Positions 1-56,650 of a stretch of DNA of 64,000 nt are shown in pieces. The notes beneath the pieces are model-generated. The model ran no database searches. It was not told where the DNA came from and saw only the letters and a list, made by a program, of their open reading frames with translations. The stretch's first letter is position 1; every line of letters starts with the position of its first letter. A program made the translations under genes and the position numbers. The stretch covers positions 1 to 64,000 of the forward strand of contig QPGO01000010.1 of assembly GCA_008632985.1 (NCBI GenBank). The letters run 5' to 3'. Origin of the DNA: Psammoneis japonica (taxonomy: Eukaryota).

Positions 1-715
1 ATGGAACACATGGAAATGCACATGCAAAACATGCGACGGATGACAAAAAACATTTGTGTCACAGTCCAGCAGCACAAGGTCCCACCCAGAGCTGGAATGT
101 GTCAGGACTTGGGTCAAGATGACAATGTTGATTTTGACATTTTCAAGGATGTCCAACTTGAAGACATTGTCGACGATCTCATGAAGCATTTTGAATCTAA
201 TCCCAAAGTCCATGTTGGAGGAACCACTGCCTCCAAGTCCAAGGGGGTGTCTCCAGAACTCTTGTCCAAGATCTGGAGGATCAGTGCCAAGGATGCAGAG
301 TGGACCATTGAGAACACTGCTCAACTCCTCCGATGCACCCAAGACCCAGCTTTCTCAAGGAACTGTTCCACGAATGACAGGATGCTGCGGCATCAACAAA
401 TTGCCCAGCACTTCTTCATGGATGCTTTCTTTGCAAGTAAAAAGGCTGGCAAGTCCACACAAGGACACTCGTGCATGCAGCAATTTGTTGCCAACAAAGG
501 CTTTGTCTGTGTGGTGCCCATGCATGCTTGATCTGAGACACCTCAGGCACTCAACATGTTTGCCAAGGAAGTGGGCGCACTGGAGGCGATCACATGTGAC
601 AGTGACCCAGCACAGAAATCTGATGCGATTTGACAACTTCTTCACTCCATTGGGGCCAGTCTTTGGCTGCTGGAGGAAGGAACACCATGGTTGAACCATG
701 CTGAACTGTGCACAT
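1..715 (+). mobile_element. Decayed Ty1/copia (diatom CoDi-like) LTR retrotransposon fragment, integrase region
   Basis: Frame 1 reads GVSPELLSKIWRI...SRNCSTNDRMLRH...HFFMDAFFASKKAGKSTQGHSCMQQFVANKGFVCVVPM and continues through TGA stops as SETPQALNMFAKEVGALEAITCD...LLEEGTPWLNHAELC. This matches the diatom copia pol motifs as I recall them (TNDRMLRY, FFMDTFFA, FVTDKGFVYVVPM, EEGTPWANRAELY), with Y->H/C and R->Q/W/H/stop changes. Truncated at about 715. Confidence 0.85.
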
Positions 716-1094
716 CAGAGGGCGCAACACACAGCAATCCAGCCACACCTTTTCATTGTGATTTTTGTTCATTTTGCAAATGAAGTTTTTGCAGTTTCAA
801 ACCTTGTCAGTTGTGCAGCTGGCAACAAATTTTAATCTGTGACAGGCAATTTGTTTGGCTGTGGCAACCTCTTTTCATCCACAAGAAAACAACTTTAACT
901 GTCCAAACGCCCCCCTCTTTTCCCATTTTGCATGTGCCTTCGTTCACTGTGACAGCTGACAATCAACACAATTAGCAGTTTTTATGTCATGTGCCTGTTT
1001 CATTGATTGAAGTGACACATGCAATGAATCTAGTCCACTCTTTGCAATCAACAGTGATGCATTGCTGCTGTGGCTTTTTAACATTGATTGTCGA

Positions 1095-2320
1095 TCAATG
1101 CCAAGTCAATGCTGCGGTCCCGGTTGTTCTGCATTTCTGGTTTGCTTGTGCTGGAGTCTCACTTCCTTTGCTTTTGTCACTGTCTTCTTGGCTGGCTGCA
1201 TCTTCCTCCTCATCTCTTTTGCCACCTGGTGCATCCGTTGCTTTGTCGTCCTCCTCGTCATCACTAGAAAGTTCCGTTGTTGCTTGTGTTCTCGTCTCCG
1301 ATTCCGCTGGTTTTTCAGTGTTTCTTCCCTTTTTTCCTTTGCCTTTGCTCTCCTTTTTCTCTTTGTCTGTGCTCCATGTGTTGAAATGCACACCCTGCTC
1401 ACTCGCCCTGTCTTCCTTTGCCTCCTTCAGCAGTTTGTTGAAGCGCAGCATTCTGCCATCCTTCTAAGAGTCACGCTGTCACGATGGGTCTGTGTGCAAT
1501 GGTGCCGGTTTCCCCTCTTCGTTCCCTTCATCATTTCCCTCCTGCATCTTCTTGCACTCCCAAACCTTCCAGCAGTTTCCCATCATCAACAGGGCCAGTG
1601 CCTCATTGCTTGCCACAGCCAGATCTGTGGCCTTGGTGCTGCCAGACTCTGCCAGACTCCTCCACATCGCAGTGCTCTTTGTGAATTTTAGGATGTTGTC
1701 ACAGAGCCATGCGTGCACCTCCCTGTTCTTTTGCTTCTCAGACACAATTGTGTCCATCATCCCATCCTCCCAGGTTGCAATGAATTCTTCTTCAATGTCA
1801 GCTTCACCCTGTTTCCGCTTCTTTCCGGATGCCTTCTTCCTTGCTTCTTTCTTCCTTTTCCCGCAGATTTCCCCGGCTTGTTTTTCTGTTGTGATGACTG
1901 CAGCAAAACAAGAAATTCATTGGTGGCACCACACCCATTTCTGCTTCAGAAATGCCCCACTCCGCCACACTTGCCACTCATTGCACTCTTCATTGTCGTC
2001 TGACACATGGTGTTTCTTTTTGCGTTGATCGCATTGAGCAAGCTTTTTTTAGCCCAGTCCTCCCACGATCCCACCCATTTGCGCTTGCTGAACTTGCCAT
2101 CTGCCATGTTTTTGCACATTGGCCAGGACACCTTGCCACCACTTGCCATGTCATCACTGACAAGACTCCTGTGGAGCGCTCCAGGCATGGCAACATTCAA
2201 TGGTTTGCGATTCAAGACTGGAAGGAGGCTGGGCACATTTTCACTTGACACCCACATGCCTGGCATTGTCAACACAAACGATGACCTCACCAAGGCTCTT
2301 GGTGCCACACTGCACACCCA
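1095..2320 (-). pseudogene. Decayed repeat-associated ORF (acidic/basic C-tail), probably part of a DNA transposon
   Basis: Fragments 1479-1760 (ASNEALALLMMGNCWKVW...PLHT) and 1095-1451 (GRMLRFNKL...EDR + acidic tail) resemble a recurrent diatom hypothetical family (SDEAFALL..EN.W..W...RFNEL). Interrupted by stops and inside a TpA-free block. The element class cannot be fixed by eye. Confidence 0.4.
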
Positions 2321-3479
2321 CCATGCCCATCAGATGATGGGACACTGCCGTTGATGCTTTGTTCTGCCCCATTTTTTCCCTGCAGAATTGCCCTTGGTCA
2401 CCTGTCATTTGTCTGTTCCTTTTCTGAGTCACCTGGTTGACTGCACTTTCTCAGATGGTTGACTCTCATCCCGCTGTGCCTTTCTTTTCTGTCTTTGATC
2501 TAGATTTGTCAAGATGACTTGTTTGGATCAGGGGAGGGTGAAAGCAGACCTGCTGTGGCACACGGTCAGACCATGTGCAGGGACGACGGACAGATGTCAT
2601 TAGATGGATGAGCAGACCCATCCGAGATCTGCTTCAGTCACTCTTTCTTGCTGGCACACATGTCATCCACTGTCACCAGTCTGCAGGGAGCTCTTTGGCT
2701 CACAGCTCTCACCATTGGTGCTCTGTCAAAGGCATCTTGGCTGAATCAATGGAGCTGGGGTCTCTCACTCTTGTCTCACACTTGAGCCTCTCTGGAGAAC
2801 TGCAAAAAAAGCTTGACCAACACATGAAATGCTTGTTTGTGCAGAGCTTGTTGCTGTCAAAACAACTTGTTAAAATGTCAAGAAGAAAGTTGATTGGGTC
2901 AACATTGCAAAATCTTTGTCAATCATGTCAGATGTCTCAGAGTCTCACAACAACTCTGACAATGTGTTTTCAACTTCATCTTCTTCAGATGTCATCCTCA
3001 GAGCCACTCATCTTGTGAAGGTGGGCAATGGAGCACTGGTCAACACGCAACAAGAAGATCCACAGGCTGGTCACTTGGACACACCACAGCTTGTGGCATT
3101 TGCCATGGAGTTGCAGATGACCATCTGTCCATCCAATCTGCCAAATGGGAAGATGCTTGCAGTGAAACAAGTCTCCATGCACTCAAAAGCCTTTGGAAAG
3201 GTTCCTCATTTGTCTCTTGAATGATCTCTCAACTGTGAACTTGACAACAAGATGCTTTGAATTCCCAGTTTTGGGTTTGATTGGATCCAAGTTGCAGAGA
3301 GGACAAAAAAGAAAAAGAGTTGTCTAGAAACAGTGATGTCTCCGTGGACCCTGCAATCTCAAATGCTGTGGTTGGAGCACAAGTCTGATTGCTGGGGATT
3401 GGACTGAAAGAAGACACTGAAATGGAGATTGCAATGATGGCAAGGAGGGTGTCATTGTTCTCAAGGGGTTGTCTGATCA

Positions 3480-5780
3480 GCGTGTGACGACCATCAAGTG
3501 GGAGGCTGTCACTTCATTGGGGCAATCCTGTCAATCAAGCAGGAAAAGATGGTTTTCACTGTCTTTCTTTTTCAAAGACTGTGCTGCCTCAGGGCTTGGC
3601 TGTGCCTGTCTCCCTGGGGCAGTGCAGGGCCATCTCTCCTTGTCAGAATGATGAATCACTCTGCTGTTGTGAGCACATGAGGAGTTAGAGAGCCACAAGA
3701 AGAGGAGCACATTGAAATCTGAAGAAGCAGTTGTTGGAGACTGTGCCTTGGTCACCACTGCACTGGAGTGTGCAACTGCAGAGTTGATTGATGCAAGATG
3801 GTCATGTCCTTTGCTCCTTTTCTTCCATCACAATGAGAGCTCTTGGAGCAGACAAGAAAAAAATTGGTGATCCATTTCTGTTTGGTGTGGACCCAAAAAC
3901 TTGCTCATGCTGGTGGACAATGGAGATCCCTCAGAAGACAGCAAAGAACATAAACTGCCAGACATGGAAAGGCCAGAACAAGGCACAAATTCATGCTTTA
4001 CATTTTGACAGGAGTGTTGTGTGTGCACAAAAGGAGTGAGGACCTCTTTGCCATCCATCAGCAGCTGAAAATGTTGTGCAAATGTGCAACCTGGCTGTCT
4101 CTTGGGTCACCTCCTTTGTTCAAGATGTTTTCAAATGGGGTCAGCACAAGCGGCGGTTGCTGCCCAGAGTTGGGATGCACTCAAGGACTGTGAGTGCCAA
4201 AAGTTCAGTGTGTGAGAAACAATTGCATTTTGACAAACTGAGACAAGTGGAAGATGCTGTGCCACTGAGAGAGTGAGAAGTGGGAAGGACTGGCAATGCA
4301 GAGGCCACACCACTGGTCACATCAGGCAGGGGATCTGACAAGAATGTGCCCCAATTGCTTTGCAGGACCCCTCCTGTCTCACATTCAAGCCCCTCTGGAG
4401 AATGGCGCTGCAAACAGGGATGACATGGACCATCCCTTTTGTGTGCCCAAAGTGCTGACCAAGACATGTCACGCTGGTGTGTGGAGCTTGCTGCGGTCAA
4501 GACATGTCATGAAAGTGTCAGGAAGCAGCTTGATCAGGTCGATCTTACAGTGCAAACTTTTTGCGGATCTTGTCAGTTGTCTTAGAGTCCAGGAATGACT
4601 CCAACAATCCTCATGGGGACTTGTCTTGTGAAGTTGGGGAATGAGGCACTGGGGAAGCATGACAAGATGCTGCACAGCTTGGTCACTTTGCAGCCACAGA
4701 TGCTCCAAAAACAGGATGAGCTCTTGAACCACTCTCTCAATTTCAGAGCTGTCATGAGATTCTGGACTTGAAGATGGGTTTGTGTTGGACCCGGGTTTCT
4801 GAAGGGTTCAAAAAGGACAAAAAGGTGTGTGGAATTGTCTCTGTGGATCTTGTGATGCCAAATGCTTTTGTTGGAGCATGTGTCTGCAGGGGTGGAGATT
4901 GGGATGAAAGAAGGCAGCACCATGGAAACAAAGATGGGTGTGATGGCAAGGAGGGGACAATTCTCAAGGCTCAAGGGCAGCTCTGATCAGCACATGTGGC
5001 CACCAAGTGGGACAGTGCAGCAACCACATTGGGGAATCCAATTCATCATCATGCAGGAAAAGATGACTTTCACAACCTTTTGGTTTTGAAGACTGGGCTG
5101 CCTCAGGGCTGGCTGTGTGCACATCTCCCTTGGGTGGTGTGGGGCCATTGATCATTGCCAGGACAAACCAAGCAGTCTGCTGTTGTGGTTTTGGTGAAGA
5201 GCTCAAAAGCCATGAGAAGATGAGCAAGTCAAAGTCTGGAGAAGCAGTTGTTGAAGACTGCACCTTGGTCATTGCTGTGCTGGATTGCACAACCATGGAG
5301 TCAATTGCACAATCTCTTGGAGCAGGCAAGAAAAAAATTTGTGACTCTTTGTCTGTTTGGCAAAAACCTGAAGATTTGGCAAAGCTGGACAATGAAGCTC
5401 ACACCCAGAAGAAGAGTGTTTGGAAAGTTCAGAACCAAGGCTTTGGATGTTGTGCACACATGGAAGGAGTGTGGGAGACCTCTGCACTCTGTGCAGTTCC
5501 ATCATCCAGTGAGCAGCCAGAAACATTGTGCAAGTGTGGCACGTGTCAGGGGTCACCTCCTTCATTCAAGAGGCCATTAAATGAAATTGATGAGCAGTGG
5601 TTGCTGCCCTGCAGTGGGGTGCAATGAATGGCTGTGTGCCAAAACTTTGGCATGTGAGAAACGACAATTGTGCTGACAAAATGGGCTGTGGGATTGACCA
5701 TCAAGCAAGTGTGGAGGCCCAAGTGGTGCAGGCATCTTCAAAGTTGAGACAAGCACCAGCAGATTCTGCGACACTGAGAA
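3480..5780. repeat. Diverged internal duplication (~3480-4280 vs ~5000-5780)
   Basis: Shared collinear motifs: CAGGAAAAGATG, GCTGCCTCAGGGCT, GAAGCAGTTGTTG, CCTTGGTCA, CTCTTGGAGCAG-CAAGAAAAAAATT, GGGTCACCTCCTT, GGTTGCTGCCC, CACTGAGA. Confidence 0.75.
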
Positions 5781-5976
5781 ATTGATGAGCAGTGGTTGCT
5801 GCCCTGCAGTGGGGTGCAATGAATGGCTGTGTGCCAAAACTTTGGCATGTGAGAAATGGCAACTGTGCTGACAAAATGGGCTGTGGGATTGATCATCAAG
5901 CAGGTGTGGAGGCCCAGGTGGTGCAGGCATCTTCAAAGCTGAGACAAGCACCAGCAGATTCTGTGACACTGAGAAA
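5583..5976. repeat. Tandem duplication, 195-bp unit x2
   Basis: GAAATTGATGAGCAGTGGTTGCTGCC starts at 5583 and at 5778. The copies differ at 8 positions, all transitions. Confidence 0.95.
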
Positions 5977-6215
5977 GCGAGAAGTGTAAAACGTTGGCAA
6001 TGTGGAGGCAGTGCCAGCCACATTGGGGGATCTGAGAATGTGCCCGTGTGCTTTGCACAGGACCACAGCACATCAAAGCTGAGACAAGAAGCATCAGCAG
6101 ATTCTGCAACACTGAGAAAGCGAGAAATGCAAAACATTGGCAATGTTGAGGCAGTGCCAGCCACATTGGGGGATCTGAGAATGTGCCCGCGGGCTTTGCA
6201 CAGGACCACAGCACA
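5935..6215. repeat. Tandem duplication, ~140-bp unit x2
   Basis: AAAGCTGAGACAAG...GAGGCAGTGCCAGCCACATTGGGGGATCTGAGAATGTGCCCG...CAGGACCACAGCACAT occurs twice. Confidence 0.9.
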
Positions 6216-6619
6216 TTTCTGATTGCTCCAATGTGACACACTGCCATGGTGAACACTTGGTGGCCTTGTTTCAAGGAAGCATCAGGCAATGTGCCCCCAG
6301 TGGCATCTTTCAATCCCCCCATGCTAAGATTGCAGCCACGGTGATGCAATGCTCTGACACAAAATCTGCAGCCGGTCTTTGCCACAGGGTGTCCCACACA
6401 TGACACAATTGCTGATGTTTGACGGCAGCATGGCTGGCCTGTGGCAATCTGTTTGCAAAGGTAAAGTGGCATGAACTGCCCCCATGAGGCCCACTGGCAA
6501 ATGATGATTGAAGCTTGACCAGTTGAACATGCAGGCCACAAGATTGCTGGCACAGCCAGCTCGGCAACAAGCGACACTGCATTTTGAGTTTGAGAAGGCG
6601 GCAGCACCGGCGGTGCTCT

Positions 6620-7010
6620 GTTTCAGCTGGAACAGTTTGCAGAAATGACACAAAGCTCAGCACAATGGCATGGCATCTTGTTTGGTTCCTCCCCTGGCAC
6701 AAACTCTTCTTGTTGATTGTGTTGCCCAGGGGACCGGTGGTGGAAGTGAAAAATGAGCGCCCCCCCTTGGCTGCCACACACTCCAACACTCATCATGTCC
6801 ACTCCTCTCCACCAACTGGCAGATGTGACATGTTTTGTTTCACAGAGGCAGCAGGGCTTGCTGCAAGCACCTGTCAAGAGACCAACACCACGTGATTTCC
6901 CTGGAGGCGGCATCTGCCTTTTTGGACTCCGGTCCACACCATGCTTCGAAACTGTGTGTTTCCTCATCTGCTTGTTCTTCTGTGCTGTCCACAGGATGTC
7001 GGATGCATGA
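6620..7010 (-). pseudogene. TpA-eroded third copy of part of the lipase-like gene
   Basis: Collinear with 10600-10950 and 15370-15600 (CTTGTTGATTG, GGACCGGT, GGCGGYATCTGCC, GCTTCGAAAC, CTCATC, TGCATGAGCT). Confidence 0.8.
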
Positions 7011-7471
7011 GCTCTACGTAGCTGACTTTTCCCGCTTGGCATTATCGAAATTACAGCCAGACATTGTTCTGGGAAAAAGCTCGGCTACCTTGTTGTTGGC
7101 GCCGCTGTACAAGCGCAAGCAACAGTTCTCTCTAGCTAGAGAGACCATGAAATTGTGACCGTGAGCGCGTCACGACATTCATGAAGCGCGCGTGCGATTC
7201 AAATTTATTTGACATATTCGAATCATTATATAGTTACTTAAGATGCATAAATCAGTAATGGATACATTCATAAAAACCGTTGACATGTTGCAGAACGCGC
7301 ACGTAGGTCTCACGTACGAAAAATGCGTGGAGCGAGGTTGAGACAACATGGTTGCGCCATCGTCGGAGACTCCACGCCGCACTTCGCAGGAACATCTGCC
7401 GCTTAACGACAAACTGTCATTTTCATACCAGAGAGAGCAAGAAGTGAGAAGAGGGTTACTAGGGCCCTACC

Positions 7472-10539: not shown

Positions 10540-12300
10540 GTGGTCGTGTATCTCCTCTACTGTAGCATGGTGTCCTACGTCGTGATCTCGCTTTTTGTAT
10601 GGCCCTGAGCTAAATGGCACGAAGTCTTATTCGGTTCCTCCATGAGTCGCAGTCCTGGCATAAGCTCTTGTTGATTGCATTGTCCAAGGGACCGGTAGAA
10701 GTAAAATGAATACCTTCCCTCTACTAACTGTCGGATGCAACATTACAATTCTGATTTATTTCGCAGACGTAGCCGGGCTGGCTACAAGTCGCGGTCCAGA
10801 AACCGACATCATGTGATTTTTCAAGGCGGTATCTGCCACCTTGGTTTTGGGTCCATATCTTAAGCTTCGAAACCGCGTCTTCTCATCCGCTTCTTTTGAA
10901 CTATCCACATACAAGACCGGCACAAAGACCGGTTTGTCGAAGTGCATGAGCTTACCGACATGTCGATAAAGCTTGGCTTGTTCCATCATTCCTCTCATTT
11001 TAAAGAATCTCAAATGCAAATTGACAAAGGACCTGGCAAAGTGATCGGCAACGTCAAAAGACGCCTTGGTTGCATCGTCCAGGAAGGCACTCAAAAAGTC
11101 ATCAATAAACTCAACATCAGAGTATCCTCTTGGTAAAACGTCAGCATTAAACACAACGTTGCGCTTATAAGGTTCAATCGAGTCATGTAAAAGCTTAAAG
11201 TATGCTCGGAAGGCTTGTCCAAGACTGTCGTCACGAGCGCAGAGATTGCAATGGCTATGATATCGACGTCCTTCAACGCTCCGACAAGTTTAGTCCAAAA
11301 AGGTCCACGATGCCACCAAGAGAGTATCCGGTGACAATCACTCTAGTAATGGGAGTTCCATCCCGTTTGAATCGATTTGGTTTCTTGCTGTACTTTCCGT
11401 TGAAATAATTGACGATATCCGTAGCGTGCTTTTTGAGATAGACATTCCAAATCATTTCATAATACGTTTTCTGAAAACCAAGTCCCTTCAACTTGTTCCA
11501 GGGCGACACCGAATCAATGTTAGCATCGGCGATGATGTCTTTGATTGTCACTGTCCCTCGCCACCCCAAGACGCCTGCAATTATTCCAACAAATGTGGGA
11601 GCATTCATAGAAAGCCAATCCGATAACAAATCCCTCAATGTTGGATGGAGTTGAAGCGTCTAAAATTTCATTGGCGGTAGCAGCGCACTCTTCGGTTTCC
11701 GATTCTTGTTACGCTTCAACCTTGCGAGCCGTGTCCTGATAGCATTTCTCGAGTACCACCATGTCGTCGTCCGATTCTTGTTTCTCGTTAACTCTTGGTG
11801 CTGCTCTTGTGACTCTCGCGTTTCTCGGATTCAAATCAAAAAAACAAATTACTAGAGCAAAAGAAATGCCGGAAATGGTTCTCATAGTTGCTTTTTGTAT
11901 GTTTAGCTCTTGCTTCTTGCTCGTTTCCACTGCTAACAAGTGCTCTTCCTCTTCTCGTTTCACGTGACGTTGTGCTCCCCACTCCCACCTTGCACCTTCC
12001 GCCAGCGCGTCATCAGCCGGTTAGGTTTCCGGATCGGTTGGCCACCTGAAATAACGGCTTTTCCCCTGAATACTCGTCAGGCAAGTTTCCGGAACGTTTG
12101 GCAACATGCATGATGCATGGCCCAACCTCTCCTCGTCTTGTTCGTTACTCGCCATGGTGTCGAGAGAGTCATTCAGTGTTCAGATGAACTTCCACCTCTT
12201 TTGGTTGGTTGCTTGGCGTTGCGTTCGCTCTCCACTCAGTTGCATAACATTGCGGTCCATGCAGATTGACTCCTCATGGCCGCCGTTGCTCTCTCTTGAA
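10540..12300 (-). pseudogene. Class-3 lipase-like (alpha/beta hydrolase) pseudogene, copy A
   Basis: Fragments LGWRGTVTIKDIIADAN, RVIVTGYSLGG (GxSxG nucleophile elbow) and FNADVLPR lie in successive different frames (11273-11638, 11091-11276, 10756-11154). Confidence 0.7.
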
Positions 12301-12379
12301 TCCAGAATGTGCTTTCGATTTCTGCATCGTGTCAGTCGTGGGAATCTGGAAATCATTCCAAACCGTTTCCACAGATTTT

Positions 12380-13070
12380 TTGCGGATGGCTGACGGACCA
12401 TCGTGATTTCGCGCGCCGGCCGCGCCGCCGGCCATCTGTCTGTCTGTCTTTCTTTCCAATTCCATTTTTCAATGGCCTTCTTCTTGGTCCACCTCAGGAA
12501 TTCCACCCTTTTGGAGGATCGCCAACGCAGAGCACTTGACCCTGACCATGCCCCACCTCCTCTGCTGGTTTTTGTTGCTTTTCAAAATTTCAATTTTGTT
12601 GCATCACATTTGCCGCTCTGTGTGCTTCATCTGCCATTTCATCATGCTCAATTTGGGTGGTGGCAGTCAGCTTTCTGGTTGATTGTTTTTTGGACACTGC
12701 CAACCATTGCAGTTTTTGGCATTTGGTTTGCAGCATGCTCCCCCATTTGACATTTGAGATGCGTGCTCTCTGCTCATCGCCTGACTTCGGCTCATGAGTT
12801 GCAGCTTCAACTCCATTTTCTTTTTTCTGGCTGGCTCCTCTTGTGCCTCCGATGCATCTTCAGCTAGCAGGTGGTCTGTTTGCACAATGTTGGGGAACAA
12901 ATTGGATGGAGCTGGAGCTGCAGACATTTGTTCCCTGTTTTCCAGCTGCCACCTGAGCAGCACACCACATGAGTGTGTGTGCTTGTGTGTGTTTCCAAAC
13001 ATCAGATGCATTCATGCTGCATTCATTTTGGCGGCCACTCGGCAGCTGTGCACTGTGTCATGTCATCGGG
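12380..13070. other. TpA-depleted block 2 separating duplication units A and B (probable TE fragment)
   Basis: Essentially no TA from ~12250 to 13070 apart from one GCTAGC; rich in CA/TG. Confidence 0.8.
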
Positions 13071-17075: not shown

Positions 17076-17239
17076 TTCTGCGACTTGTGCGTCCACTCTC
17101 CATCGTGAGTCTATGCGTCGACCGTTCTTCGCGCGCGCTCGCACGCACCCGAAGGTCTCCTCACAGGCCTCTCGCGGAAGTAAGATGGACGATGTGTCAG
17201 GGTCGTATGTAGGCCGTTTGTTACGGTGCCATTTTTCCG

Positions 17240-45779: not shown

Positions 45780-46220
45780 TTGCAACACACAGCTGCCAAT
45801 GAGAGCCAACGTGTCGCGGCGACATGTTGCAGCCTTTAAATGTCACAAAGGGCGTGACAAAAATGACCTTTTGTCTCTGCATGCACACTGCATTGTGAAT
45901 TCATGGCGGAGTGGTTCATCGCAACCATCAGGCAGGAGGCCAGGGTTCGAAACCCTGAGTGGGAATTGTCTGCAGCAACGTTGATCACTGTCGAACGCGC
46001 AAAACTCTGTGCAGTTCTGCATGTTCCTTCTCACGCACCCACACTGTTCCGCCAAAACCGTGCAGTGTCAGCACACGTCAGCAAAGAGCCGCATGGACGC
46101 GTGACACATGGGGAGGAGTGCAACACACAGCTGCTGACAAGAGTTGATGCATCACGGCGACGTGTTGCAGCCTTCAAATGTCACAAAGGGCGTGACAAAA
46201 ATGACCTTTTGTCTGCGTGC
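45780..46220. repeat. Dispersed ~95-bp direct repeat
   Basis: TGCAACACACAGCTGC...TGTTGCAGCCTTYAAATGTCACAAAGGGCGTGACAAAAATGACCTTTTGTCT at ~45781 and ~46119. Confidence 0.85.
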
Positions 46221-48839
46221 ATGCTGCAAAATGCATTCAGGATGTCATCGCCCCTGGAAAATGGCTGGACAAAGGGTGCTGCACCAACTTCACAAAGAGG
46301 ACAGGATGAATCTTGGAATGTGGCCACTGGACAACAACAAGAGAGCCAAAAGAAAAGGAAAACTGGGTGCTTCTCAACAGAGTCAATTGGGGAAGATTGG
46401 AGTTGTGTGAGGCATTTGGGCTGGGCAGCGGGGAGCCATGTTTTCACTTCTCGATCATTCAAGAAATGGGGGGACATTTGTTGCGAGCAACAAAGGGTCA
46501 CAAGGAGGATGGGATGAACATTTTTTAATTGGTCAAATGACCAATGCACAGCTGGAAAGAAAGGGAAACTGGGTGATTCCTGTCTGGCAAATGCCTTTTG
46601 CAATGGCCAAATTAGAGATCTGGCGATCATTTGTGGTCAATGTTGCAACCACATTCTGCAATTTAAGAACCCTGGGGCAATGTCATCTCCTCCTCAACTG
46701 CAAGCCTTTGAGTCTTGCAACTTCATTGGCGTGATGCCGCGTCCATCCATTCTTGTGAGCTGCGCTTGTTGCTGCCTGAGCGGCGCTGCAGGATCCCAAG
46801 AGAAGCGACAATGACAGCAGCCAGAGAAATGCAATGGCGTCATTTCCAACAACAACCACAATGCAGAATGCACATGTCTGATTGAGACAAGGAGCAGATG
46901 GATCCACTGCTGTTTCCCAAGAGTTCGGACTTGTTTGCATCTTCCGCGAGAACATCTTTGGGTCATCGTCTCCTCCAACACGTTGTCTGCGCACAATGAT
47001 GACAAAGGCTCCGACAGTGATCAAAGTCACAGTGAGGACATTGTGGGACAAGGAGAAGCCATCAAGAGCAGTGTTGCCAGCAGTCACTGAGTCGAGCATG
47101 GTGAATGGCGAGTCACCGGCACAATTGTTGGCGCTGGCACTGCACAAGTCATGCTCTCCTGCGTTGTTGGTTGGCACAAATCCAACAACAAGAGTGGTGC
47201 AAAGGACGTGTCCATTCCATCATCAGCGCAATCATCATCATCTGTGTTGCTCAAGTGGAAGAGCCGTCTCGCCTCCTCAATGCTGGATTTGAACATGGGT
47301 CTCACCATTTCCAACCAATTTTGTGGTCTCCGAGTTGAGCGAGTCAAGTGTTCTTCCACCAAGTCGAACAAAGCAGACCCATCCTTTGCAAGACACTTGC
47401 TTGAACGGGAATGAATTGCCTTGACTTTGATGTTGAGAACAGATGGGAACCCTGATTGTGCCGCCACTTGCGCACACATGGTCATGGGCTTGAGGCATTG
47501 GTGGCAAAAGCCAGTGTGCTTGAATCAGCTGCAACAATGAGCATGTCTTGAAGACTTGTTGGAGAGTGCACTCAGGTCAACAATGTGTCAAAATTTTGAG
47601 TGCTGACTGTGCTTCTTGTGGGTCTCATAAAAGCTGGCTGCAAACAAGACACTTCAGAGAAGAAGAGTGTCATCTTTTGGAGACTTGGATGTGACAGTGT
47701 GTTGTGGGGTGTTTGGACAGGAATGAGATCCATGCCATCATTGACATCCAACTGGCAACAGACATCCATGCAAATGCATGGCTTCTCCTTGTTGCATCAT
47801 CAGGGTTTCTTGCTCATCTGTCAAAAATGAAGAAGTTCAAAATCTGAAAAAAAGTGTGAGACACAAAGCACAACTCAGCGAGACAGCTGCAATTGTGGCA
47901 CAACAAAACAGATCTTTAAATCATGCTGTGGGACACAGAGAACATGGCTGATTGAAATGGCGTGGCAACCCAAAGGCTTGAGGTCATGGGGGCTCAGATG
48001 TGAGATGCTCAACGAGCAGCTCAAGCGGTCTGAACTTCCTTGCATCCTTCATAAAAAAGAGCTGCTCTCTGTTGTGCACACCATCTTGCCAGTCTGGGAC
48101 ATCAGCAGGTGCTCAGTGTGCATTGAAAAAAGGTGAATGGCCATCATGTGGCGGGAGCTCTCTTGAACAACACAAGCACTCAAAAAGTGCACTGGCTGGC
48201 AATGGCTGCTGCTGCCCCATTGGGCCTGCACCAGCACTCAACACACGCACACAAAAAGTGAGTTTGCTGGCTGTGTCATGGTGCACCCCTGTCAGAACCA
48301 TGAGCTGCTTTGATGGGTGGTTGTTGTTTCCCTTCGAACCTGCTTCTAAAGGCAGCATGCACAGCCAAATGCACAGAGGAAACCAGCCAAGGACCCAAGC
48401 TTTCAGGTTCACATGGAAGAGGGAAGGGCATCAAGGACCGCCCCAAATCCTTCAGGTCTGCGTGGCAATCATGTTTGTGGACAACATCCAATGACTTCAC
48501 TCCAGCAGATCTCATTCGAACCCAACACGCGTCTCAGTCAAGTTTGGTGGTTAGGGGAACTACCCAGTGTCAGGACAGCAGACCCTACGAGCTCCGAACT
48601 CCACGATTTTTTTGCCTCCGACTTTTTCGTGGCCGCCAACATCGGCATGCAGGCGCTGTGCGAGAGCGCGCATGATTGCGATGTGGGGATGGCCAACGAA
48701 TTCGAGTGCATTATAAGGCCCACGTCTCAAGTGCTGCCACTGTATTCTTCAACATATTGTTGTATAAGGCAACAATACTACGATTCATTCAGTATACTTT
48801 TGACTAGAGTAGCAGAAGCAAAGGAAAAAATAAAATAAA

Positions 48840-50144: not shown

Positions 50145-50224
50145 ATAAAAACGGCTTTGCATTGACCTCCACTATACGACTACTGCATTGCTCGTTGCAA
50201 GCTGGCACAGGTCCGGCTTGGCTC

Positions 50225-52126: not shown

Positions 52127-53109
52127 GTGCGACGGTATGCTGTGATGATGTCGCGTGGCGTACTTTCCAAAAGTGCGGTGCGCAGTACTCGTCTACATAC
52201 GGACAAATAGTACTAGACTCTACGCACCGAACACAACAAGATTTCACTTCATTACGACAACAGCACGGGAAGTCTATCATGTCGGGTATATCGACGTTAT
52301 TGCGCTTCTTGCGTATAAAAAATACATCAATCCACTAATATTACGCATGCGAATTGGATGGGATACAGGATCTTGCAAATCTGGTGAAAAAATCGTCCCC
52401 CGTGCTTCACCGTGTTAAAAACCCCGTGCTAATCCTCCATAATGAATGAAATCCAACTTTTCGTCAAAATCTGTTGTCGCGTGCTCACTTCAGTGCTTCA
52501 TCAATGCGATCGACCGAGAAAACACAAAATACACCCCAAAAAAGTGAAAAACAACAGTCCCACCGCGGCCAAAACCTCTACGTGATTTCAGTACCAAGTT
52601 GTACGTGCCAAAAACCCTTCGTCACCAATGGCTCAACCAGCTCCCAAAACAACTCGATCATTGTCATTTGACATTGATATCTCATTTCTTATCATATCAG
52701 TTGTTGTCTCGGTGCATCATAACCTCCCAGTCCGCTGTCGTTGTTGTGTGCGTCCATTGCCGATGTCGCGGCGTCGTTGCCGTGATGTTTGTGTGTGAAG
52801 TGAATTCAAATAAACATCTCTACGAATTTTGTAGTACATTTTTACGTACGTATATTTTGTGTAGATCAGGTATGCGCACCGAATTTTTGAAAGTACGCCA
52901 CTCCATTGGGCCGGTAGTTCGTTTGGTCGGTATGTAAAGTAGCTTTCTACGTAGTCTACGTAAGTTGAAGTGAAACGTCATCATGCGCGCCTGCCAACCA
53001 CTCAAATTTTCAAATATTCTCCGCACAAATTCGTGCTCTCTCTAACACCTCACCCGGTGCCTCCTGTCATCACGAGAAAGTGAGGGACCTGGATCCTTTT
53101 GTAAAGTGA

Positions 53110-56100
53110 GTTCAGAGACACCCTCCTCGACAACATGCTGAAAAAGATCCAGGAAAACTTTGAGGAAGATCTCATTTCCGCGGAAAAAGGGCGTGTGCTC
53201 TCGTTTCTTCGAGACATTTCACAAAACTTGCGATGCAGCGCATGCTCTGGTCTGACATGGTCAGCACCAACCCTGGCAGTCTAAGCACCTTCATTTGGAC
53301 TTCAAGACGAAGCATGGAAATCCAGTTCTTGGCCACCATGCATGCAAATGCATCAAATGACTCCCCTCAATTGCCTGCACCACACGCTGAATCCACCCAC
53401 CCCACTTTGTTGCTGGTGTGGGAAAAACAAAGCAAACAATGTGGTGCTCTTTTCTTTGGCTGAAACAAGGTGACTGGTCCATGGCCATGTGCACCCAAAC
53501 CATTGGAACAAAATGGCCCCCTTGTGCTTGTTCTCTTTCATGTGCGGTGGGCCACAAATGCCACCGGGAATTGCTGCACCTCACTTTGTGATCAAGACCT
53601 CCACACATTTTTGCCCGAGGGCCTTGGCCTCAGGAGGATCAAAGTCTTGCTCTTTGTTGCAGGTGGAGCTGCACCTTGTTTTGCACCTCACTGTCTTGTC
53701 AATGCATCAAGCATCTGCTTTGCTCCTCTCTCTCGCACATGTGCATTGTGCACTGTGGCAGCTCATCAAAGCCGTTGACATGAACCCTGCCAAGCTTGTC
53801 TGCTTCAGGTCAAAACCACACAAGGCTCAACAGAGCTTGCTCCCAATGTTGCTTCTGTGACCACATGGGAGTTGACCACACATGTTGCTGTCAAAGAAGT
53901 GCTCTGTGCAGCGCTGTGTTGGGCTGGAAAAACTTTGTTCTCCCCAGCACACACCAACAAAACTTTCAATCTGCACCCAGGGAAAAGAAGAAGAAAAGGA
54001 GCCAACAACAAATGATGGCCCCTGTTGAACTTGTCTGCTTCTGGTCAAAACCACACAAGGCATGACAGAACTTGGTCCCATGTTGCTTCTGTGACCATGT
54101 GGGAGTTGACCACACACATTGCTGTCAAAGCATGCTGTGCAGCACTGTTTTGTGCTGGAAGAACTTTGTTGTCCCCAGCACGCACAAACAAAACTTTTCA
54201 ATCTGCACCCAGGAAAAAGAAGAAAAGGAACCAACAACAAATGTGCAATTGTGGCTCACATCTTGATCTCAGCACCTTGCCCTGGCATCAACTTTTTTCT
54301 GCTCTTTCTTTGCATCTGCACCAAAGTTTGCTGCACTTGTGGAGCCACATCTGCTGAATTGAGAAATGCTTTGGACCCAGCTTCTGGCTTCCTCTGATGA
54401 GAGGAGCTGTGTTTTTTTATCAACTGTTTTGATTGAGTTCAGGTGTGAAAGCCATTGTTGAAACATGTGCAGAGCATCTCCTGTGAGCACTGATCTGTTT
54501 TTTTTGTCTCTTTCTCCATTGTTGAATCATGAGCAGCAGCTGCTGTTGTCAATGTCTCATCAAAACATTGACCAAACAATGCCATTGGTGCTTTGACATG
54601 ACAAAAACTTGGCACGCTTCCTCTTTGGCTTGACTGCTGCTGCTGCTGACAGGCATTTCTGTGTTTGTCTTTCTGCCCACTTTGCCTCTGCTTCCACTGC
54701 AGTGATGTTGTGCTGTGCCAGCACTGCTTCAGCATCATTGCCACAACCTTCTCATTGGTCTGCTTCCAATGTGTTCATCAAAAAGAGCACACAACGGCAG
54801 CACTGCAAGAACCCAAGCCGCCCACATGATGCAGCCCCAACTTGTTTGAGCAAGTGGAAAAGATGATGAGCTGGCCTTTTGAGAACAATGTGGTGCACAC
54901 ATTCATCAACAACACAACTGCCCCCTCATTCTTGTGCTGCTGTTGGCAACTGCACTGCATTGCTGAACATGCAATGTCAACCAACTTTCAACAACCACAT
55001 TTGTGCACTTTGTCCACCACAGCTGTTTTTGACATTTGCCACACATTTTGTTTGGCTTCACCTTTTCCATGGAAAATCTCCTTCCAGCACATCATGGGTT
55101 TGTTTTCTCAGCTGCAAACCTGTGCAAACCAACAGCCAAGTGTTTGCATTGTCTCCTCTGTTTTTTTTCACTGTCTTGCATTTGGTGTGCACTGCTGGCA
55201 GTGTCTCTGCTGACATGCTGAGAGGAACGAATCATGCATTGAGAAGCTGCAAAAGCACTGAGGGACGGCGGGTGTGTGGTGGTGTGCACTCCAGTGCCAG
55301 GGTCATGTGGGCAATGTGCTGCAACAAAAGTGATTGACAAAAGCCACAAAAACAAAATGATGCAAGAACTTGTGCTGCTGTGGCATTGCACCAGGTTCTC
55401 TTGCTCTGTTCTTGTTCAAAGCAAAATTGGTTGTCTTGAGGAAAATCAAGAGGCTTTCCATTGCCACCCCATGTGCCACAAATTTGCCATGGCACACAAC
55501 TCTAAAGAGTCCGCTGTCATTGCCATCAGCTGCAGTTTTCATGGCAGCACATCCATTGGCACTTCATGACCATTCAAGAAGAACATGGGGAAGCTTGAGT
55601 TTGAGCTTGCATGCAAGGATGCTGCCAATGATGACAGCTGCATGAGGGGTTTGATTGGCAACTTTTGCAACTTTGTGGCATGCTCCTCTCCACACCTTGT
55701 GTGGCACCTTGCTTTGCCTGCATTGTCTGGCTCTAGTTCATTTTGACACTGGACATGACAGCCAGTCTTCAGATGTCATGAACTTTGTGCTGGCTTCATC
55801 TCTTTTGCCAATCTCAGAGGCACTTTGCCTTGCAAAAAACAACAACAACAGGGCCTTGAAAAACTCAGGGACATTGTCTCAACATTGGGTGGCTCATTGC
55901 ATTGAGGACAAAGTTGCAACTGCACCCTTTTGGGAATTGCCATTCATGGCCACCTGTGAGATGTGCAAGCTCACAGATGTGATTGCAATGGAACCAGATG
56001 CAGTTTTCTCTGTGTTGGGCATGTTTTTAATCAGCCAAGCCTGCAACAACAACTGACACACATGAAAGTGGTGTTGTCATTTTGACCACAAGAGAGTGTG

Positions 56101-56650
56101 CCATGAATGCTGCCAATGGTGCTGCACTTGTCCAATCCTGAGTTGAAGCAAGCAACTCATTTTGAGTGCTTTGGTGCCTCTTTTTGTCTCTGTGACACAA
56201 CTGAAAATGCCAACTGGCAATTGCAAGTCATTGCCACACCAAATGGATTGATCTTGCAGCCAACTGCACTCTGCCTGCACTCTGCCAGAGTGGAGGCAGG
56301 CACAGCTTTAAATCTGGCTTCCATGGGCAAAGCATCATTCAAGCAGCTTGCTCACAAAGCATGCAAAGCAAGTTGTTGCTGCACCTTGGAGGACAGTGAG
56401 CAACAATTGCAAAATGATTGAGTGGACAATGAGAGCAAAGAATGCACAAATGTGGGACAATTCTTGTGGCTTGGAGAGCCATCCTTGTGTTTCAATGTGG
56501 GTTTCCTTGCTTCAGACTCGAACAAGTTGAGCATCACTTGAGGTCTCTAAAATCCCATGGCAGGGATTGCAGCCACCATGCAAGTCGATGCGTTGGGCTC
56601 CAAATTTCTGCTGGTGACTGTCATGGGAGGAACATGCTTTGGGGCAGCAC
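53110..56650. other. TpA-depleted hypermutated block 6 (unidentified decayed element)
   Basis: TA is near absent (survivors include CTAA, CTAG, TTAA, TTTAT). Normal composition returns at ~56657. Confidence 0.9.
53783..54245. repeat. Tandem duplication, ~236-bp unit x2
   Basis: CTTGTCTGCTTCWGGTCAAAACCACACAAGGC...GGGAGTTGACCACACA...AAAACTTT-CAATCTGCACCCAGG...CAACAACAAATG occurs twice. Confidence 0.9.

Follow-up and report, generated by a model that had tools for sequence, protein, structure and literature searches.

Which process strips the dinucleotide TA from defined stretches of a diatom genome, when the DNA next to them has normal TA, is the question raised by the window analysed here, 64,000 nt of Psammoneis japonica on contig QPGO01000010.1. 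A sequence-only reading had described six sharply bounded TA-poor blocks totalling ~24 kb with TA-normal neighbours, and the counts bear this out. Out of 1669 TA in the window, only 59 fall within six blocks that together span 23,465 nt, while 928.5 would be expected there at the rates of the remaining 40,535 nt. Observed-to-expected (o/e) ratios within the blocks are 0.04 for TA and 0.24 for CG (331 occurrences, versus 1356.3 expected at outside rates), and reach 1.80 for both CA (2596) and TG (2689), whereas outside they amount to 0.59 for TA (1604), 1.00 for CG (2343), 1.15 for CA (2908) and 1.12 for TG (2841). These deficits correspond to Poisson log10 P values of -308 for TA and -244 for CG, and the gain of 1957 in CA plus TG (5285 observed, 3328 expected) approximates the loss of TA (870) plus that of CG (1025). 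Base composition is the same in blocks (A.251, C.244, G.245, T.260) and outside (.258,.241,.240 and.260, respectively). When counted in 500-bp bins, TA ranges from 0 to 4 with a median of 1 in blocks (n=44), versus a median of 19 and a minimum of 4 outside (n=74). At 10 of the 11 block edges the change in TA counts takes 50-150 bp, the exception being the left edge of block 5, which is gradual (about 41350-42180).

Block 1 (1..7015; 25 TA and 87 CG in 7015 nt) is of composite content and shows TA o/e values of 0.03-0.12 in 1-kb windows, with a sharp right edge at 7015 and a left side that runs off the window start. Its first 720 bp contain TA only at positions 198 and 438, the two previously counted, and include on the plus strand (118..708) a hypermutated fragment of the integrase region of a Ty1/copia-type polyprotein, matched by tblastn to 5 homologues (E 1e-41 to 3e-47, 46-48% identity), two of which (P0122 and P0123) bear PF07727 RVT_2. 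Tandem repeats that diverge by transitions only are found at 5583..6217 (plus strand), and purine/pyrimidine-coded BLAST revealed 6640..7000 as a hypermutated paralogue of the TA-normal segment 10590..10915, which served as comparator and is part of the segmental duplication 8181-12290 / 13458-17076. Block 2 (12245..13075; 2 TA and 28 CG in 831 nt) gave no Pfam family in read-through minus-strand frames, and neither did block 3 (17222..19968; 2 TA and 35 CG in 2747 nt, with a single TA-free gap of 1838 nt) in six read-through frames.

Block 4 (28215..31066; 6 TA and 64 CG in 2852 nt) holds remains of ordinary protein genes, namely a RING-finger (C3HC4) open reading frame (ORF) at 29568..29786 on the plus strand (PF13923, 36.3 bits for a cut-off of 27; PF00097, 34 bits for a cut-off of 21) and a Ubc9-like (SUMO E2) remnant at 30458..31090, also on the plus strand, whose matched part (30476-30613) scores 25.3 bits with PF00179 UQ_con (E 1.3e-5), under the cut-off of 27, and whose top solved chains are Ubc9-type (E 1.7e-6). 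The same block contains, at 29240..29520, a hypermutated relative, matched in purine/pyrimidine code, of a TA-normal repeat of ~22 copies (52610-52900). Block 5 (about 41800..48552; 18 TA and 100 CG in 6753 nt; right edge sharp) displays summed word depths of 380-1540 over 41801-45400 and of 28,995-36,823 over a very-high-copy family member at 45401..46600, versus about 58 in the flanks, and a search of 1.84 billion representatives gave no relative of the block's longest ORF (43986-44810). Block 6 (53282..56548; 6 TA and 17 CG in 3267 nt) is at single-copy depth (63-74, with flanks at 56-58) and gave no Pfam family in six read-through frames. It adjoins the ~22-copy repeat (52150..53280), a non-coding and unmutated comparator with TA o/e 0.77, CG o/e 1.32, no long ORF except the end of an LRR gene, and a depth of 1259-1416 over 52001-53200 that falls to 73.5 from 53201. 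Among the proteins previously named in the blocks, the copia integrase and the Ubc9-like one stand, with His or Cys in place of Tyr and Gln or Trp in place of Arg, while the LINE was not confirmed, no reverse-transcriptase match appearing in 290 ORFs of at least 56 aa nor in the read-through frames of blocks 2, 3 and 6. Mobile DNA is demonstrated for block 1 only, copy number suggests it for parts of blocks 4 and 5, and four of the six blocks have no assigned content.

31-mer (short-word) contigs from the public run X1 were compared with the assembly. They show 0 differences over 40001-42150 and over 43436-45369, 1 over 46199-47133, 1 over 47294-48885, 3 over 53051-53875 and 12 over 54101-56573, bridge the edges at 41800, 48552 and 53282, with the contig ending at 56573 passing 56548 by only 25 nt, and have a depth of 55-74 in block 6 and its flanks. 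Since these contigs contain the block sequence and run across the block edges at single-copy depth, the blocks are not a basecalling or assembly artefact; the prospect that raw reads would show TA at these sites is not realized, the X1 contigs, possibly the assembly's own source, carrying the same letters. We therefore give practically no credit to basecalling or polishing errors at modified bases, to a chimeric assembly, or to horizontally acquired DNA of odd composition. An argument for the artefact is that runs X1-X3 derive from a single sample of a single study, share that sample with, possibly, the assembly itself, and have no library type on record; they rule out consensus or assembly error and are not an independent biological replicate. 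On the contrary, exact 31-mer contigs with ~60-fold word depth that reproduce 0.8-5 kb block pieces with 0-12 differences are impossible with error-prone reads, and strand-dependent base misreading would be expected to split the graph instead of yielding a single full-depth path. As for foreign DNA, the paralogue and protein comparisons described below indicate a derived composition, not a native one. The blocks probably are real nuclear domains of the diatom genome, a judgement made jointly with the explanation favoured below.

The polarised counts come from two paralogue pairs only (about 640 aligned nt) and one protein segment of 197 aa. Comparing 6640-7000 with TA-normal 10590-10915, 14 reference TA correspond to 6 CA, 6 TG and 0 TA, and 14 reference CG to 5 TG, 3 CA and 2 CG, the substitutions comprising 22 T>C, 18 A>G, 10 C>T and 9 G>A. 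The segment 29240-29520, which shares 83% identity over 278 nt with the ~22-copy repeat in purine/pyrimidine code, presents 4 CA, 2 TG, 1 TA and 7 other letters (in poorly aligned parts) at 14 reference TA, and 7 CA, 4 TG and 2 CG at 17 reference CG. Considering these two pairs together, A>G occurs at 15/33 A sites after T versus 21/143 elsewhere (P 2.5e-4), an excess of TA to TG/CA, and C>T at 16/36 C sites before G versus 6/88 elsewhere (P 3e-6). Relative to 71 intact segments, the copia integrase is identical in 61 of 79 conserved columns and shows an invariant Tyr replaced by His (CAT) and Arg by Gln twice (CAA) and by Trp once (TGG); the 5 homologues additionally reveal a Tyr>Cys change (TGT), and two Tyr of the solved chains align to Cys in the Ubc9-like remnant.

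Repeat copies add to this picture. The tandem pair 5583-5781 / 5778-5976 is identical across 199 nt in purine/pyrimidine code, its 8 differences being all transitions with 0 transversions. Transitions and transversions number 65:29 in in-block repeats versus 222:223 outside, and double differences of CA versus TG, seen at 5964 and in other in-block repeats, 13 in 1011 columns versus 7 in 3551 outside. All 8 of the 8 listed C>T differences of the high-copy family at 45758-46092 oppose CA in the window to TA in other copies, the copies being mixed at each differing site. No such TA poverty is seen in intact copia-family relatives (median TA o/e 0.67 at 80 loci), and no comparable TA-free block was found on 80 environmental contigs with copia relatives, retrieved with search patterns that favoured intact copies. 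Mutation, acting in place, produced the pattern. Comparisons with paralogues, homologous proteins and other repeat copies give the changes the direction anticipated by the sequence-only reading, a second A:T>G:C process at TpA on both strands. They support, at the level of sequence comparison, a reading of the blocks as the product of such transitions plus CpG decay, apparently confined to dead mobile or pseudogene DNA.

A genome-wide bias against TA and CG, the blocks being old neutral DNA and selection keeping TA in genes and young insertions, would require no targeting. TA is scarce outside the blocks as well (o/e 0.59), and the unmutated repeat at 52150-53280 could be merely young. This explanation is nonetheless very unlikely, considering that (i) edges are sharp to 50-150 bp, (ii) intergenic DNA outside the blocks reaches TA o/e values up to 0.8-1.2, (iii) from paralogues of the same age, one has 14 TA and the other kept 0, and (iv) divergence outside TA and CG is modest (61/79 integrase columns intact; A>G outside TpA 12-18%), so that TA-specific loss far outran background change, and in one copy only.

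The TA that survive in blocks depend on their flanks (chi-square P 1e-22), with 0 of about 275 expected for RTAY, 9/259 for RTAR, 9/225 for YTAY and 41/172 for YTAR; under a two-rate model, kY:kR is 3.6 and 1.6 RTAY would be expected to survive. CTAG survives comparatively well (7 of about 51 expected). Polarised changes agree, affecting TAC in 8/11, TAT in 6/12, TAG in 1/6 and TAA in 0/4 cases, that is, 14/23 TAY versus 1/10 TAR (P 0.009). This preference of the targeted A for a following pyrimidine (T-A-pyrimidine) is a new detail. Runs tests on CA versus TG give z values from -2.7 to +1.1, resembling those outside, and this random interleaving indicates that both strands were hit independently. 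It also makes it extremely unlikely that the copies arrived already TA-free through A-to-I editing of retroelement RNA of the ADAR/ADAT type, or cDNA deamination, fixed by reverse transcription. Block 1 does contain a retrotransposon fragment, and a U before the edited A is reported as typical of RNA editing enzymes; RNA editing would, however, mark one strand, whereas CA and TG are here equal in frequency. Moreover, a mutated copy of a nearby chromosomal segment, divergence of tandem copies after their duplication, decayed RING/Ubc9-like genes and spill-over into flanks are not products of retrotransposition, and the preference for a +1 pyrimidine runs counter to the motifs reported for ADAR and fungal editing.

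The T-A-Y preference is given equally by a thymine-directed process at R-T-A, so adenine is not identified as the attacked base. Dinoflagellates, which also belong to the SAR group, swap thymine for 5-hydroxymethyluracil, preferentially in TpA and TpC, and this, together with the strand-symmetric signature, in which T-A-Y for adenine equals R-T-A for thymine, speaks for a TET/JBP-like enzyme that modifies T in R-T-A in silent chromatin (e.g., to 5-hydroxymethyluracil), T>C then resulting from mispairing with G or wrong repair. We consider this route unlikely. The window itself offers no information on base modification, full-depth contigs carry fixed C or G in place of mixed calls, and no TC-context effect is observed (TC o/e 0.98 in blocks). 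In addition, the authors of the sole experimental precedent, on B. natans, frame their discussion around adenine deamination (10.64898/2026.01.13.699255).

Loss of CpG shares its domains with loss of TA, which would suit a by-product of error-prone repair, where, in methylated domains, frequent T:G mismatches from 5-methylcytosine (5mC) deamination undergo patch repair and a low-fidelity polymerase writes A>G at TA. Pol eta had been put forward for this role on account of its WA>WG preference, known from immunoglobulin hypermutation, but the fit is poor. AA shows no depletion (o/e 1.25 in blocks, 1.15 outside), and A>G after a 5' A (7/56) does not exceed the background after C (8/44) or G (6/43). 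Losses of TA and CG are uncorrelated across the 44 in-block bins (rho 0.10, P 0.51), TA loss being complete even in bins with nearly normal CpG counts (as many as 25 per 500 bp). At three edges, the lack of TA also reaches farther out than the CpG-poor core; CG is normal in about the first 200 bp of block 2 from its left edge, and in the last 400 bp of block 4 it is back near normal with TA still absent. Furthermore, CG o/e falls to 0.12 among environmental copia relatives, and three of them (L016, L025 and L034) retain TA (o/e 0.50-0.52) despite strong CpG loss (0.12-0.36). A repair by-product is accordingly a decidedly improbable source of the TA loss. The CpG loss, whose extent varies independently, probably reflects ordinary decay of 5mC, which accounts for CG>TG/CA in the blocks and in the environmental relatives and cannot remove TA, these relatives losing CpG without TA loss. 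Diatoms are among the lineages in which 5mC is reported to mark silenced DNA (PMC12344493).

Regarding targeting, block 6 is single-copy and the neighbouring 4-kb duplication (8181-12290 / 13458-17076; 80-92% identity) is untouched, so targeting does not look homology-induced, and the unmutated ~22-copy repeat beside block 6 indicates that not every repeat is targeted. The mutation is restricted to domains and independent of copy number, and the label of a 'reverse-RIP' of repeats does not suit it. Like RIP in Neurospora and other fungi, this is a transition-only hypermutation that ruins mobile DNA in sharply bounded domains. RIP is, on the contrary, triggered by duplication, and runs in the C>T direction (PMC7296669), mainly at CpA, creating TpA and AT-rich DNA, whereas here TA is erased and GC content unchanged.

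Other known systems resemble the blocks in part. Very-short-patch repair of E. coli, with its methylation-linked bias T -> C, depletes a TA-containing word (CTAG) genome-wide; it is word-specific (CTAG to CCAGG contexts) and weak, whereas all TA words are affected here, in domains only. ADAR hyper-editing and APOBEC3 in animals likewise direct deamination against mobile or viral nucleic acid and leave clustered transitions in integrated copies, but they act on RNA or on cDNA before integration and mark one strand, whereas here both strands were changed in place; APOBEC, besides, changes C, not A. The reported +1 preference of ADAR is G or A, as is that of fungal ADAT-type mRNA editing, unlike the pyrimidine seen here. 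T-A-Y better fits the motif of bacterial TadA, given as U-A-C-G (PMC10027721, PMC10586758), and the wobble adenosine deaminases TadA and ADAT2-3, which also edit mRNA off target, require U/T before the edited A, with a +1 pyrimidine for TadA. As described, however, they act on hairpin loops of RNA, and those accounts do not establish chromosomal DNA as a natural substrate.

The nearest precedent contradicts the earlier belief that such a process lacked prior description. Mettrop et al. (bioRxiv 10.64898/2026.01.13.699255) report exactly this signature in Bigelowiella natans, as TpA>TpG/CpA hypermutation of viral and transposon-like DNA integrated in its genome. Of the 231 mutations that they found in two viral regions, 230 were A>G or T>C, all of them at TpA, and the rate was roughly 1000-fold that of the genome. 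The preprint also describes TpA-depleted coding sequences enriched in RT and DDE domains and 124 TpA-poor, CpA+TpG-rich clusters. Both cases share an A:T>G:C change confined to TpA, yielding TpG or CpA by strand, and restricted to regions that are not host-like. They differ in host, a diatom (Stramenopila) here and a chlorarachniophyte (Rhizaria) there, in extent, TA loss being near saturation here (o/e 0.04) and the hypermutable NCLDV region of B. natans still having 3.3% TpA, and in targets, which are a copia fragment, unclassified repeats and decayed RING/E2 genes here and giant-virus or virophage inserts there. Here only the footprint is seen; in B. natans the rate was measured. The abstract, Results and Discussion of the preprint do not give a preference for a +1 pyrimidine, and CpG loss, spatially coupled here, goes without mention in its main parts, so that, as far as reported there, the TA/CpG pairing is not part of the known kind.

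With moderate confidence, we favour two site-specific transition processes acting in place on dead copia retrotransposon DNA, unclassifiable repeats and decayed RING/Ubc9-like genes, and reaching a few hundred bp into the DNA next to them. The first would change A to G in 5'-TA-3' on either strand, giving TG or CA, nearly to completion, about 3.6 times faster at T-A-Y than at T-A-R, and through many independent single-site events instead of strand-wise bursts. The second would be C -> T at CpG, ranging from complete to slight among sub-blocks, most simply as decay of 5mC in methylated, silenced DNA. Silent chromatin or 5mC may mark the domain, and the A>G step may be enzymatic adenine deamination in DNA by a candidate TadA/ADAT2-like enzyme of CDA fold, similar to the ADAT2-like deaminase proposed by the authors for B. 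natans (10.64898/2026.01.13.699255). Its effect would be to destroy coding capacity, through Tyr codons, TAA/TAG stops, xTA codons and TA-rich signals, and so to serve as a defence against mobile DNA. As the TA-to-TG/CA signature occurs in a diatom and in one unrelated alga (2026), genome defence by TA hypermutation, so far little known, may be widespread.

A sliding dinucleotide profile, combined with the list of TA positions across the window, delimited six blocks from which TA is nearly absent (1-7015, 12245-13075, 17222-19968, 28215-31066, ~41800-48552 and 53282-56548, blocks 1 to 6 in this order), amounting to 23,465 nt. Inside them TA occurs 59 times (observed/expected, o/e, 0.04) and CG 331 times (0.24), together with 2596 CA (1.80) and 2689 TG (1.80), while the 40,535 nt outside show o/e ratios of 0.59 for TA, 1.00 for CG, 1.15 for CA and 1.12 for TG. 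At the outside rates the blocks would hold 928.5 TA, 1356.3 CG and 3328 CA plus TG, against 59, 331 and 5285 observed, and the surplus of 1957 CA plus TG approximately equals the missing 870 TA and 1025 CG. Base composition is nonetheless the same inside and outside the blocks, because one of the losses converts AT to GC and the other GC to AT. The switch in TA count spans 50-150 bp at 10 of the 11 block edges and is gradual at the remaining one, on the left of block 5. The TA counts therefore bear out the TA-free blocks described by the sequence-only reading, including its two TA in the first 720 bp. The TA-richest stretch of the window, 32501-34000, lies around the point where the gene for the bicarbonate transporter has its 3' end, with TA o/e of 1.19-1.23 and CA+TG of 0.86-0.97.

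The same stretch is present in one public sample, sequenced in runs X1, X2 and X3 of a single study; this sample is maybe the assembly's own source, with no library type on record, and is not an independent biological replicate. Logan contigs of X1, assembled from exact 31-letter words at a word depth of ~55-65, were compared with the window (16 of 2353 pieces listed). Among the pieces listed, the contigs reproduce 40001-42150 and 43436-45369 with no differences, 46199-47133 and 47294-48885 with one difference each, 53051-53875 with three, and 54101-56573 with 12, and three of them cleanly span the block edges at ~41800, 48552 and 53282 at flank-like depth. Depth in X1 is 63-74 at block 6 and 56-58 at the flanking genes. 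Since these contigs reproduce the blocks and cross their edges at the depth of the flanks, the block sequence is contiguous, nuclear and accurately read. A long-read basecalling or polishing artefact is ruled out by full-depth contigs carrying the block letters, and a chimeric join by contigs running across the edges. Moreover, a base read differently on each strand, as for example inosine, would split the word graph, whereas a single full-depth path is seen. The 12 differences of block 6, accompanied by 4 gaps in 2.5 kb, compare with 0-1 in flank contigs; they include TA/CA or TA/TG at 54418, 55292 and 56029, and CG/TG at 55266 and 55512, and may be allelic variants, a hint of a recent process. 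Over 40001-58000, run X2 (its kind guessed as DNA, the library type not being on record) covers genic bins very unevenly and leaves most block bins uncovered, a pattern resembling what a transcript-derived library might give; the uncovered part proves nothing.

Paralogues of block DNA were then sought by BLAST of the window recoded into purines and pyrimidines, which hides transitions. By this means 6640-7000, at the end of block 1, was recognized as a copy of the TA-normal 10590-10915, and 29240-29520, in block 4, as a copy of a TA-normal, ~22-copy repeat at 52610-52900. The 14 TA of 10590-10915 correspond in the block 1 copy to six CA, six TG, two other dinucleotides and no TA, and its CG to five TG, three CA and two CG. 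At the well-aligned sites of these two pairs, which provide small polarised counts, A to G changes affect 15 of 33 A sites after T and 21 of 143 elsewhere (P = 2.5e-4), and C to T changes 16 of 36 C sites before G and 6 of 88 elsewhere (P = 3e-6).

Protein and family comparisons were also carried out. The segment 118-708 of block 1 codes for the integrase part of a Ty1/copia-type polyprotein, RVT_2 being present in two full-length relatives, and it was compared with 71 intact segments from environmental (metagenome) loci, 76 of 80 loci having matched over at least 140 aa and five with stops being left out. The fragment keeps 61 of 79 conserved columns, with an invariant Tyr turned into His (CAT), two Arg into Gln (CAA) and one Arg into Trp (TGG); a second conserved Tyr, identified in a five-protein alignment, reads Cys (TGT), and two further Tyr to Cys changes appear in the Ubc9-like remnant of block 4. 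Copia relatives at the 80 loci display a median TA o/e of 0.67 (range 0.27-0.90), and the family is therefore not natively TA-poor. Within the very-high-copy part of block 5, the eight C to T differences between 45758 and 46092 among those listed (40 of 459 rows) are all CA in the window against TA in other copies, and both TA and CA states occur among the copies at each such site. Paralogues, protein, family members and same-genome copies hence point to blocks shaped by mutation.

Repeats inside the blocks diverged after their duplication; the copies of one tandem pair in block 1 are separated by eight transitions and no transversions. CA opposite TG is expected when one ancestral TA or CG is hit on different strands of two copies, and such double differences number 13 in 1011 aligned columns of in-block repeats versus 7 in 3551 of duplicated host DNA, the transition to transversion counts being 65:29 and 222:223, respectively. 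By dinucleotide counts CA and TG are equal in number across the blocks, and runs tests on each of the blocks find them randomly interleaved (z from -2.7 to +1.1), as they are outside. This random interleaving indicates many independent single-site events on both strands, and argues against strand-wise bursts and one-strand RNA editing.

The 59 surviving TA comprise 41 Y-TA-R, nine R-TA-R, nine Y-TA-Y and no R-TA-Y, versus 172, 259, 225 and 275, respectively, expected at outside frequencies (chi-square P = 1e-22). Y-TA-R, represented by 18 TTAA, 10 TTAG, seven CTAG and six CTAA, differs from all other flank classes in presenting T-A-purine on either strand. When T-A-Y and T-A-R are given separate rates, their ratio comes to 3.6 and 1.6 R-TA-Y survivors are expected, with 0 observed; this two-rate model also predicts the observed larger surplus of YTGY plus RCAR (1.81-fold) than of YCAY plus RTGR (1.46-fold). 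Polarised paralogue changes, although small in number, affect 8 of 11 TAC, 6 of 12 TAT, 1 of 6 TAG and 0 of 4 TAA (Y versus R, P = 0.009). By complementarity the same rule is R-T-A if thymine is the attacked base, and a thymine-directed modification at R-T-A is the main rival to an attack on adenine. Read as T-A-Y, the rule resembles the U-A-C-G of bacterial TadA, while ADARs and fungal mRNA editing favour a purine after A, according to the portions available of the cited sources (PMC10027721, PMC10586758); the likeness to a TadA/ADAT2-like deaminase is one of motif.

Regarding the relation between both losses, (i) 500-bp block bins contain 0-4 TA and 0-25 CG, without correlation (rho 0.10, P = 0.51, 44 bins), (ii) the TA-free zone extends 200-800 bp past the CpG-poor core at three edges (12245, 17222 and 31066), and (iii) several environmental copia relatives have lost CpG (o/e 0.12-0.36) and retained TA. 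The CpG loss is therefore read as ordinary 5mC decay, and the TA loss as a separate, faster process; diatoms are counted among the lineages with 5mC marking silenced DNA in the accessible part of PMC12344493. One enzyme producing both the CpG and the TpA changes is conceivable in view of ADAT2 enzymes able to deaminate C in DNA as well, as cited in the available text of a preprint on the chlorarachniophyte Bigelowiella natans (bioRxiv 10.64898/2026.01.13.699255), but it appears unlikely, given that the two losses are decoupled at edges, among environmental relatives and across bins.

The content of the blocks was searched with Pfam, using 140 ORFs of at least 84 aa and, from the 191 that measure 50-83 aa, the 150 with 56 aa or more; blocks 1, 4 and 5 were covered as ORFs, and blocks 2, 3 and 6 as read-through frames in addition. 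No match at E 0.001 was found for 288 of the 290 ORFs, the sole matches being a weak UQ_con and RING. Neither RT, RNase H, endonuclease or transposase domains above noise nor the LINE recognized by the sequence-only reading were found in these ORFs and the read-through frames of blocks 2, 3 and 6; matches of block ORFs to zf-RVT (E 0.039) and DDE_Tnp_1_5 (E 0.013) are at chance level. Apart from the copia fragment of block 1, block 4 contains DNA related to a dispersed repeat, a RING finger that exceeds the Pfam cut-off and the Ubc9-like remnant, and block 5 multi-copy DNA including a family at ~500-630x single-copy depth by X1 word depth, while in blocks 2, 3 and 6 no content was named from ORFs or read-through frames by Pfam. 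The longest block ORF (43986-44810, block 5) has no relatives among 1.84 billion representatives, and no homology between the six blocks was detected by BLASTN or in purine/pyrimidine code. Matches between 1058-2021 and 49524-50074 were discounted as apparent low-complexity coding bias, and the comparison of the duplication ends at 12240-12490 and 17030-17285, of which only ~50 nt align, was dropped.

The high-copy segment of block 5, 45401-46600, reaches a summed word depth of 29,000-36,800 in 20-34 variant contigs and contains an internal repeat of ~338 bp (45777-45940, 46115-46277), without Rfam, tRNA or TRF matches; candidate identities are a satellite, a SINE-like element and an rDNA spacer. 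Rfam gave no matches at gathering thresholds in the whole window, two sub-threshold ones in 45300-46800 being at chance level; ARAGORN gave no tRNAs, a T-arm-like string at ~45945 not being confirmed as tRNA-derived, and TRF no arrays in 41500-48800.

A foreign or mobile origin applies to the copia fragment of block 1 and may apply to the multi-copy DNA of blocks 4 and 5, but hypermutated DNA also includes the RING and Ubc9-like remnants and a duplicate of chromosomal sequence from nearby. Block 6 shows single-copy depth in X1 although it is hypermutated. On the contrary, the tandem segmental duplication 8181-12290/13458-17076, beside blocks 1-3, keeps its TA (o/e 0.35-0.82), and so does the ~22-copy repeat. 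Targeting is hence not by repetition as in RIP, and the 'reverse-RIP' of repeats initially proposed does not fit. The duplication is ~4 kb long, at 80-92% identity, and includes a Rad60-SLD (SUMO-like) ORF besides an unnamed one; a TA-free block comes after each unit, and a third, partial unit (6640-7305) lies partly in block 1 and is hypermutated. One of the three copies of this local segment is thus hypermutated, because it is inside block 1. The repeat at 52150-53280 is non-coding, at ~22x single-copy depth, and unmutated (TA o/e 0.77, CG 1.32); it stops exactly at the start of block 6, has a hypermutated relative inside block 4, and may be a young insertion not, or not yet, targeted. We infer targeting by position or chromatin state, with some spreading, and not by sequence homology.

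No TA-free block appeared in the 80 metagenome loci with copia relatives, retrieved with the patterns FFMD[TA]FF and TNDRMLRY, which favour intact copies, and this absence is weak evidence against generality. Two low-TA 500-bp windows were found among these loci, both in L001. Its copia relative (1051-4392), with an intact 1114-aa ORF, has 15.3 TA per kb versus a median of 46.3 in 53 loci, a CG o/e of 0.13, and 57% of its TA as Tyr codons versus a median of 25%. As most of the TA left in it belong to Tyr codons of this intact ORF, L001 was rejected as an instance of the same pattern; its low TA could reflect codon usage, or an active element under TA-directed mutation and selection.

Genes flanking the blocks have long ORFs and few introns (MFS, bicarbonate transporter, P450, LRR, Mlo-like, DUF6824 and DnaJ/zuotin). 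For the DnaJ protein, the best named relatives come exclusively from diatoms, at 47-53% identity (a Bacillariaceae MAG, Nitzschia inconspicua, Cylindrotheca closterium, Fistulifera solaris and Epithemia), and the MFS protein has its best named relative in Odontella aurita. This identifies the host as a diatom, one that lacks close sequenced relatives in the collections searched, and Bigelowiella as host is ruled out. The bicarbonate transporter (33807-35546, minus strand) and the P450 (57690-59370, minus strand) consist of two adjacent ORFs each, consistent with one short intron in each of these otherwise intron-poor genes.

The closest precedent for the diatom footprint, which carries the same signature, is B. 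natans. As reported in the accessible text of its preprint (bioRxiv 10.64898/2026.01.13.699255), 230 of 231 mutations in integrated giant-virus and virophage regions of mutation-accumulation lines were A>G or T>C; these fell exclusively on TpA, arose at ~1000x the genomic rate and were confined to some of the lines. The same text describes 124 TpA-poor, CpA+TpG-rich clusters in the genome and TpA-free predicted CDS enriched in RT and DDE domains, and proposes adenine deamination by an ADAT2-like enzyme. Similarly, in the diatom blocks A>G/T>C is concentrated on TpA on both strands, with 12 of 14 paralogue TA turned into CA or TG, and the depletion of TA and enrichment of CA/TG parallel those clusters. 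On the contrary, G:C>A:T is virtually lacking in the B. natans regions, as far as that text goes, whereas CpG>TpG/CpA is strong in the diatom blocks (CG o/e 0.24; 16 of 36 sites); furthermore, the rate was measured directly in B. natans, while the diatom process is known here from its footprint.

Other known systems fit less well. Fungal RIP turns C into T at CpA, producing a TpA surplus and AT-rich DNA, and is triggered by duplication with all copies hit; in the diatom blocks TA is erased, CA enriched and GC content unchanged, single-copy block 6 is affected, and the duplicated pair and the ~22-copy repeat are spared. Decay of CpG driven by 5mC explains the CG loss, not the ~870 TA lost. ADAR-type editing acts on one strand, on retroelement copies and with G at +1, whereas the blocks are strand-symmetric, include non-retroelement DNA and favour a pyrimidine at +1. 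Pol eta, named as a candidate by the sequence-only reading, would produce A>G after either A or T (WA>WG); it is disfavoured by A after A being unaffected (7 of 56, versus 15 of 33 after T) and by AA o/e not being lowered. The footprint is probably best accounted for by a chromatin-aimed adenine deamination acting at T-A-Y in chromosomal DNA, which would produce the A>G step, plus 5mC decay, which would add the loss of CG. A broader proposal is distinctly more tentative: diatoms and chlorarachniophytes, perhaps with much of the SAR supergroup, might share a putative chromatin-guided TadA/ADAT2-like DNA adenine deaminase reading 5'-T-A-Y-3' on either strand, which would be recruited to 5mC-marked silent domains and a few hundred bp beyond and would clear invading DNA of all TA, and thereby of all Tyr codons and TAA/TAG stops, with GC unchanged.

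TpA>TpG/CpA hypermutation had been considered undescribed, a claim superseded by the B. natans preprint, the only report to surface; for diatoms, no account of TA/TpA depletion or TA-directed hypermutation was found in the literature searched, most subscription journals being outside reach. The diatom is thus a second phylum for a very recently described kind of hypermutation, here in one 64-kb window and reads from one sample. What is new is its saturation, its co-location with CpG decay and a flank rule that does not appear in the available preprint text, in which diatoms and CpG are not mentioned either.

Such blocks are missed by RIP-type or isochore scans because their GC content is normal. 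Their stop words are 32 TAA, 19 TAG and 527 TGA, and 194 stop-to-stop ORFs of at least 70 aa occur in 23.5 kb; as TAA and TAG are nearly gone, spurious long ORFs arise in each of the six frames, and gene callers are therefore likely to predict phantom genes. Nearly all domain searches fail, so that transposon content will be under-annotated. If the shared editor is real, it would be a counterpart of RIP invisible to GC-based scans and an adenine base editor of natural origin; a deaminase acting naturally on adenine in DNA would matter to both evolutionary biology and base-editing technology, and the preference for T-A-pyrimidine is a concrete biochemical signature for screening candidates. If our reading holds, TA-directed hypermutation is no quirk of a single chlorarachniophyte and operates to saturation in diatoms, and in these major, genetically tractable primary producers both the enzyme editing chromosomal adenine and its aiming become testable.
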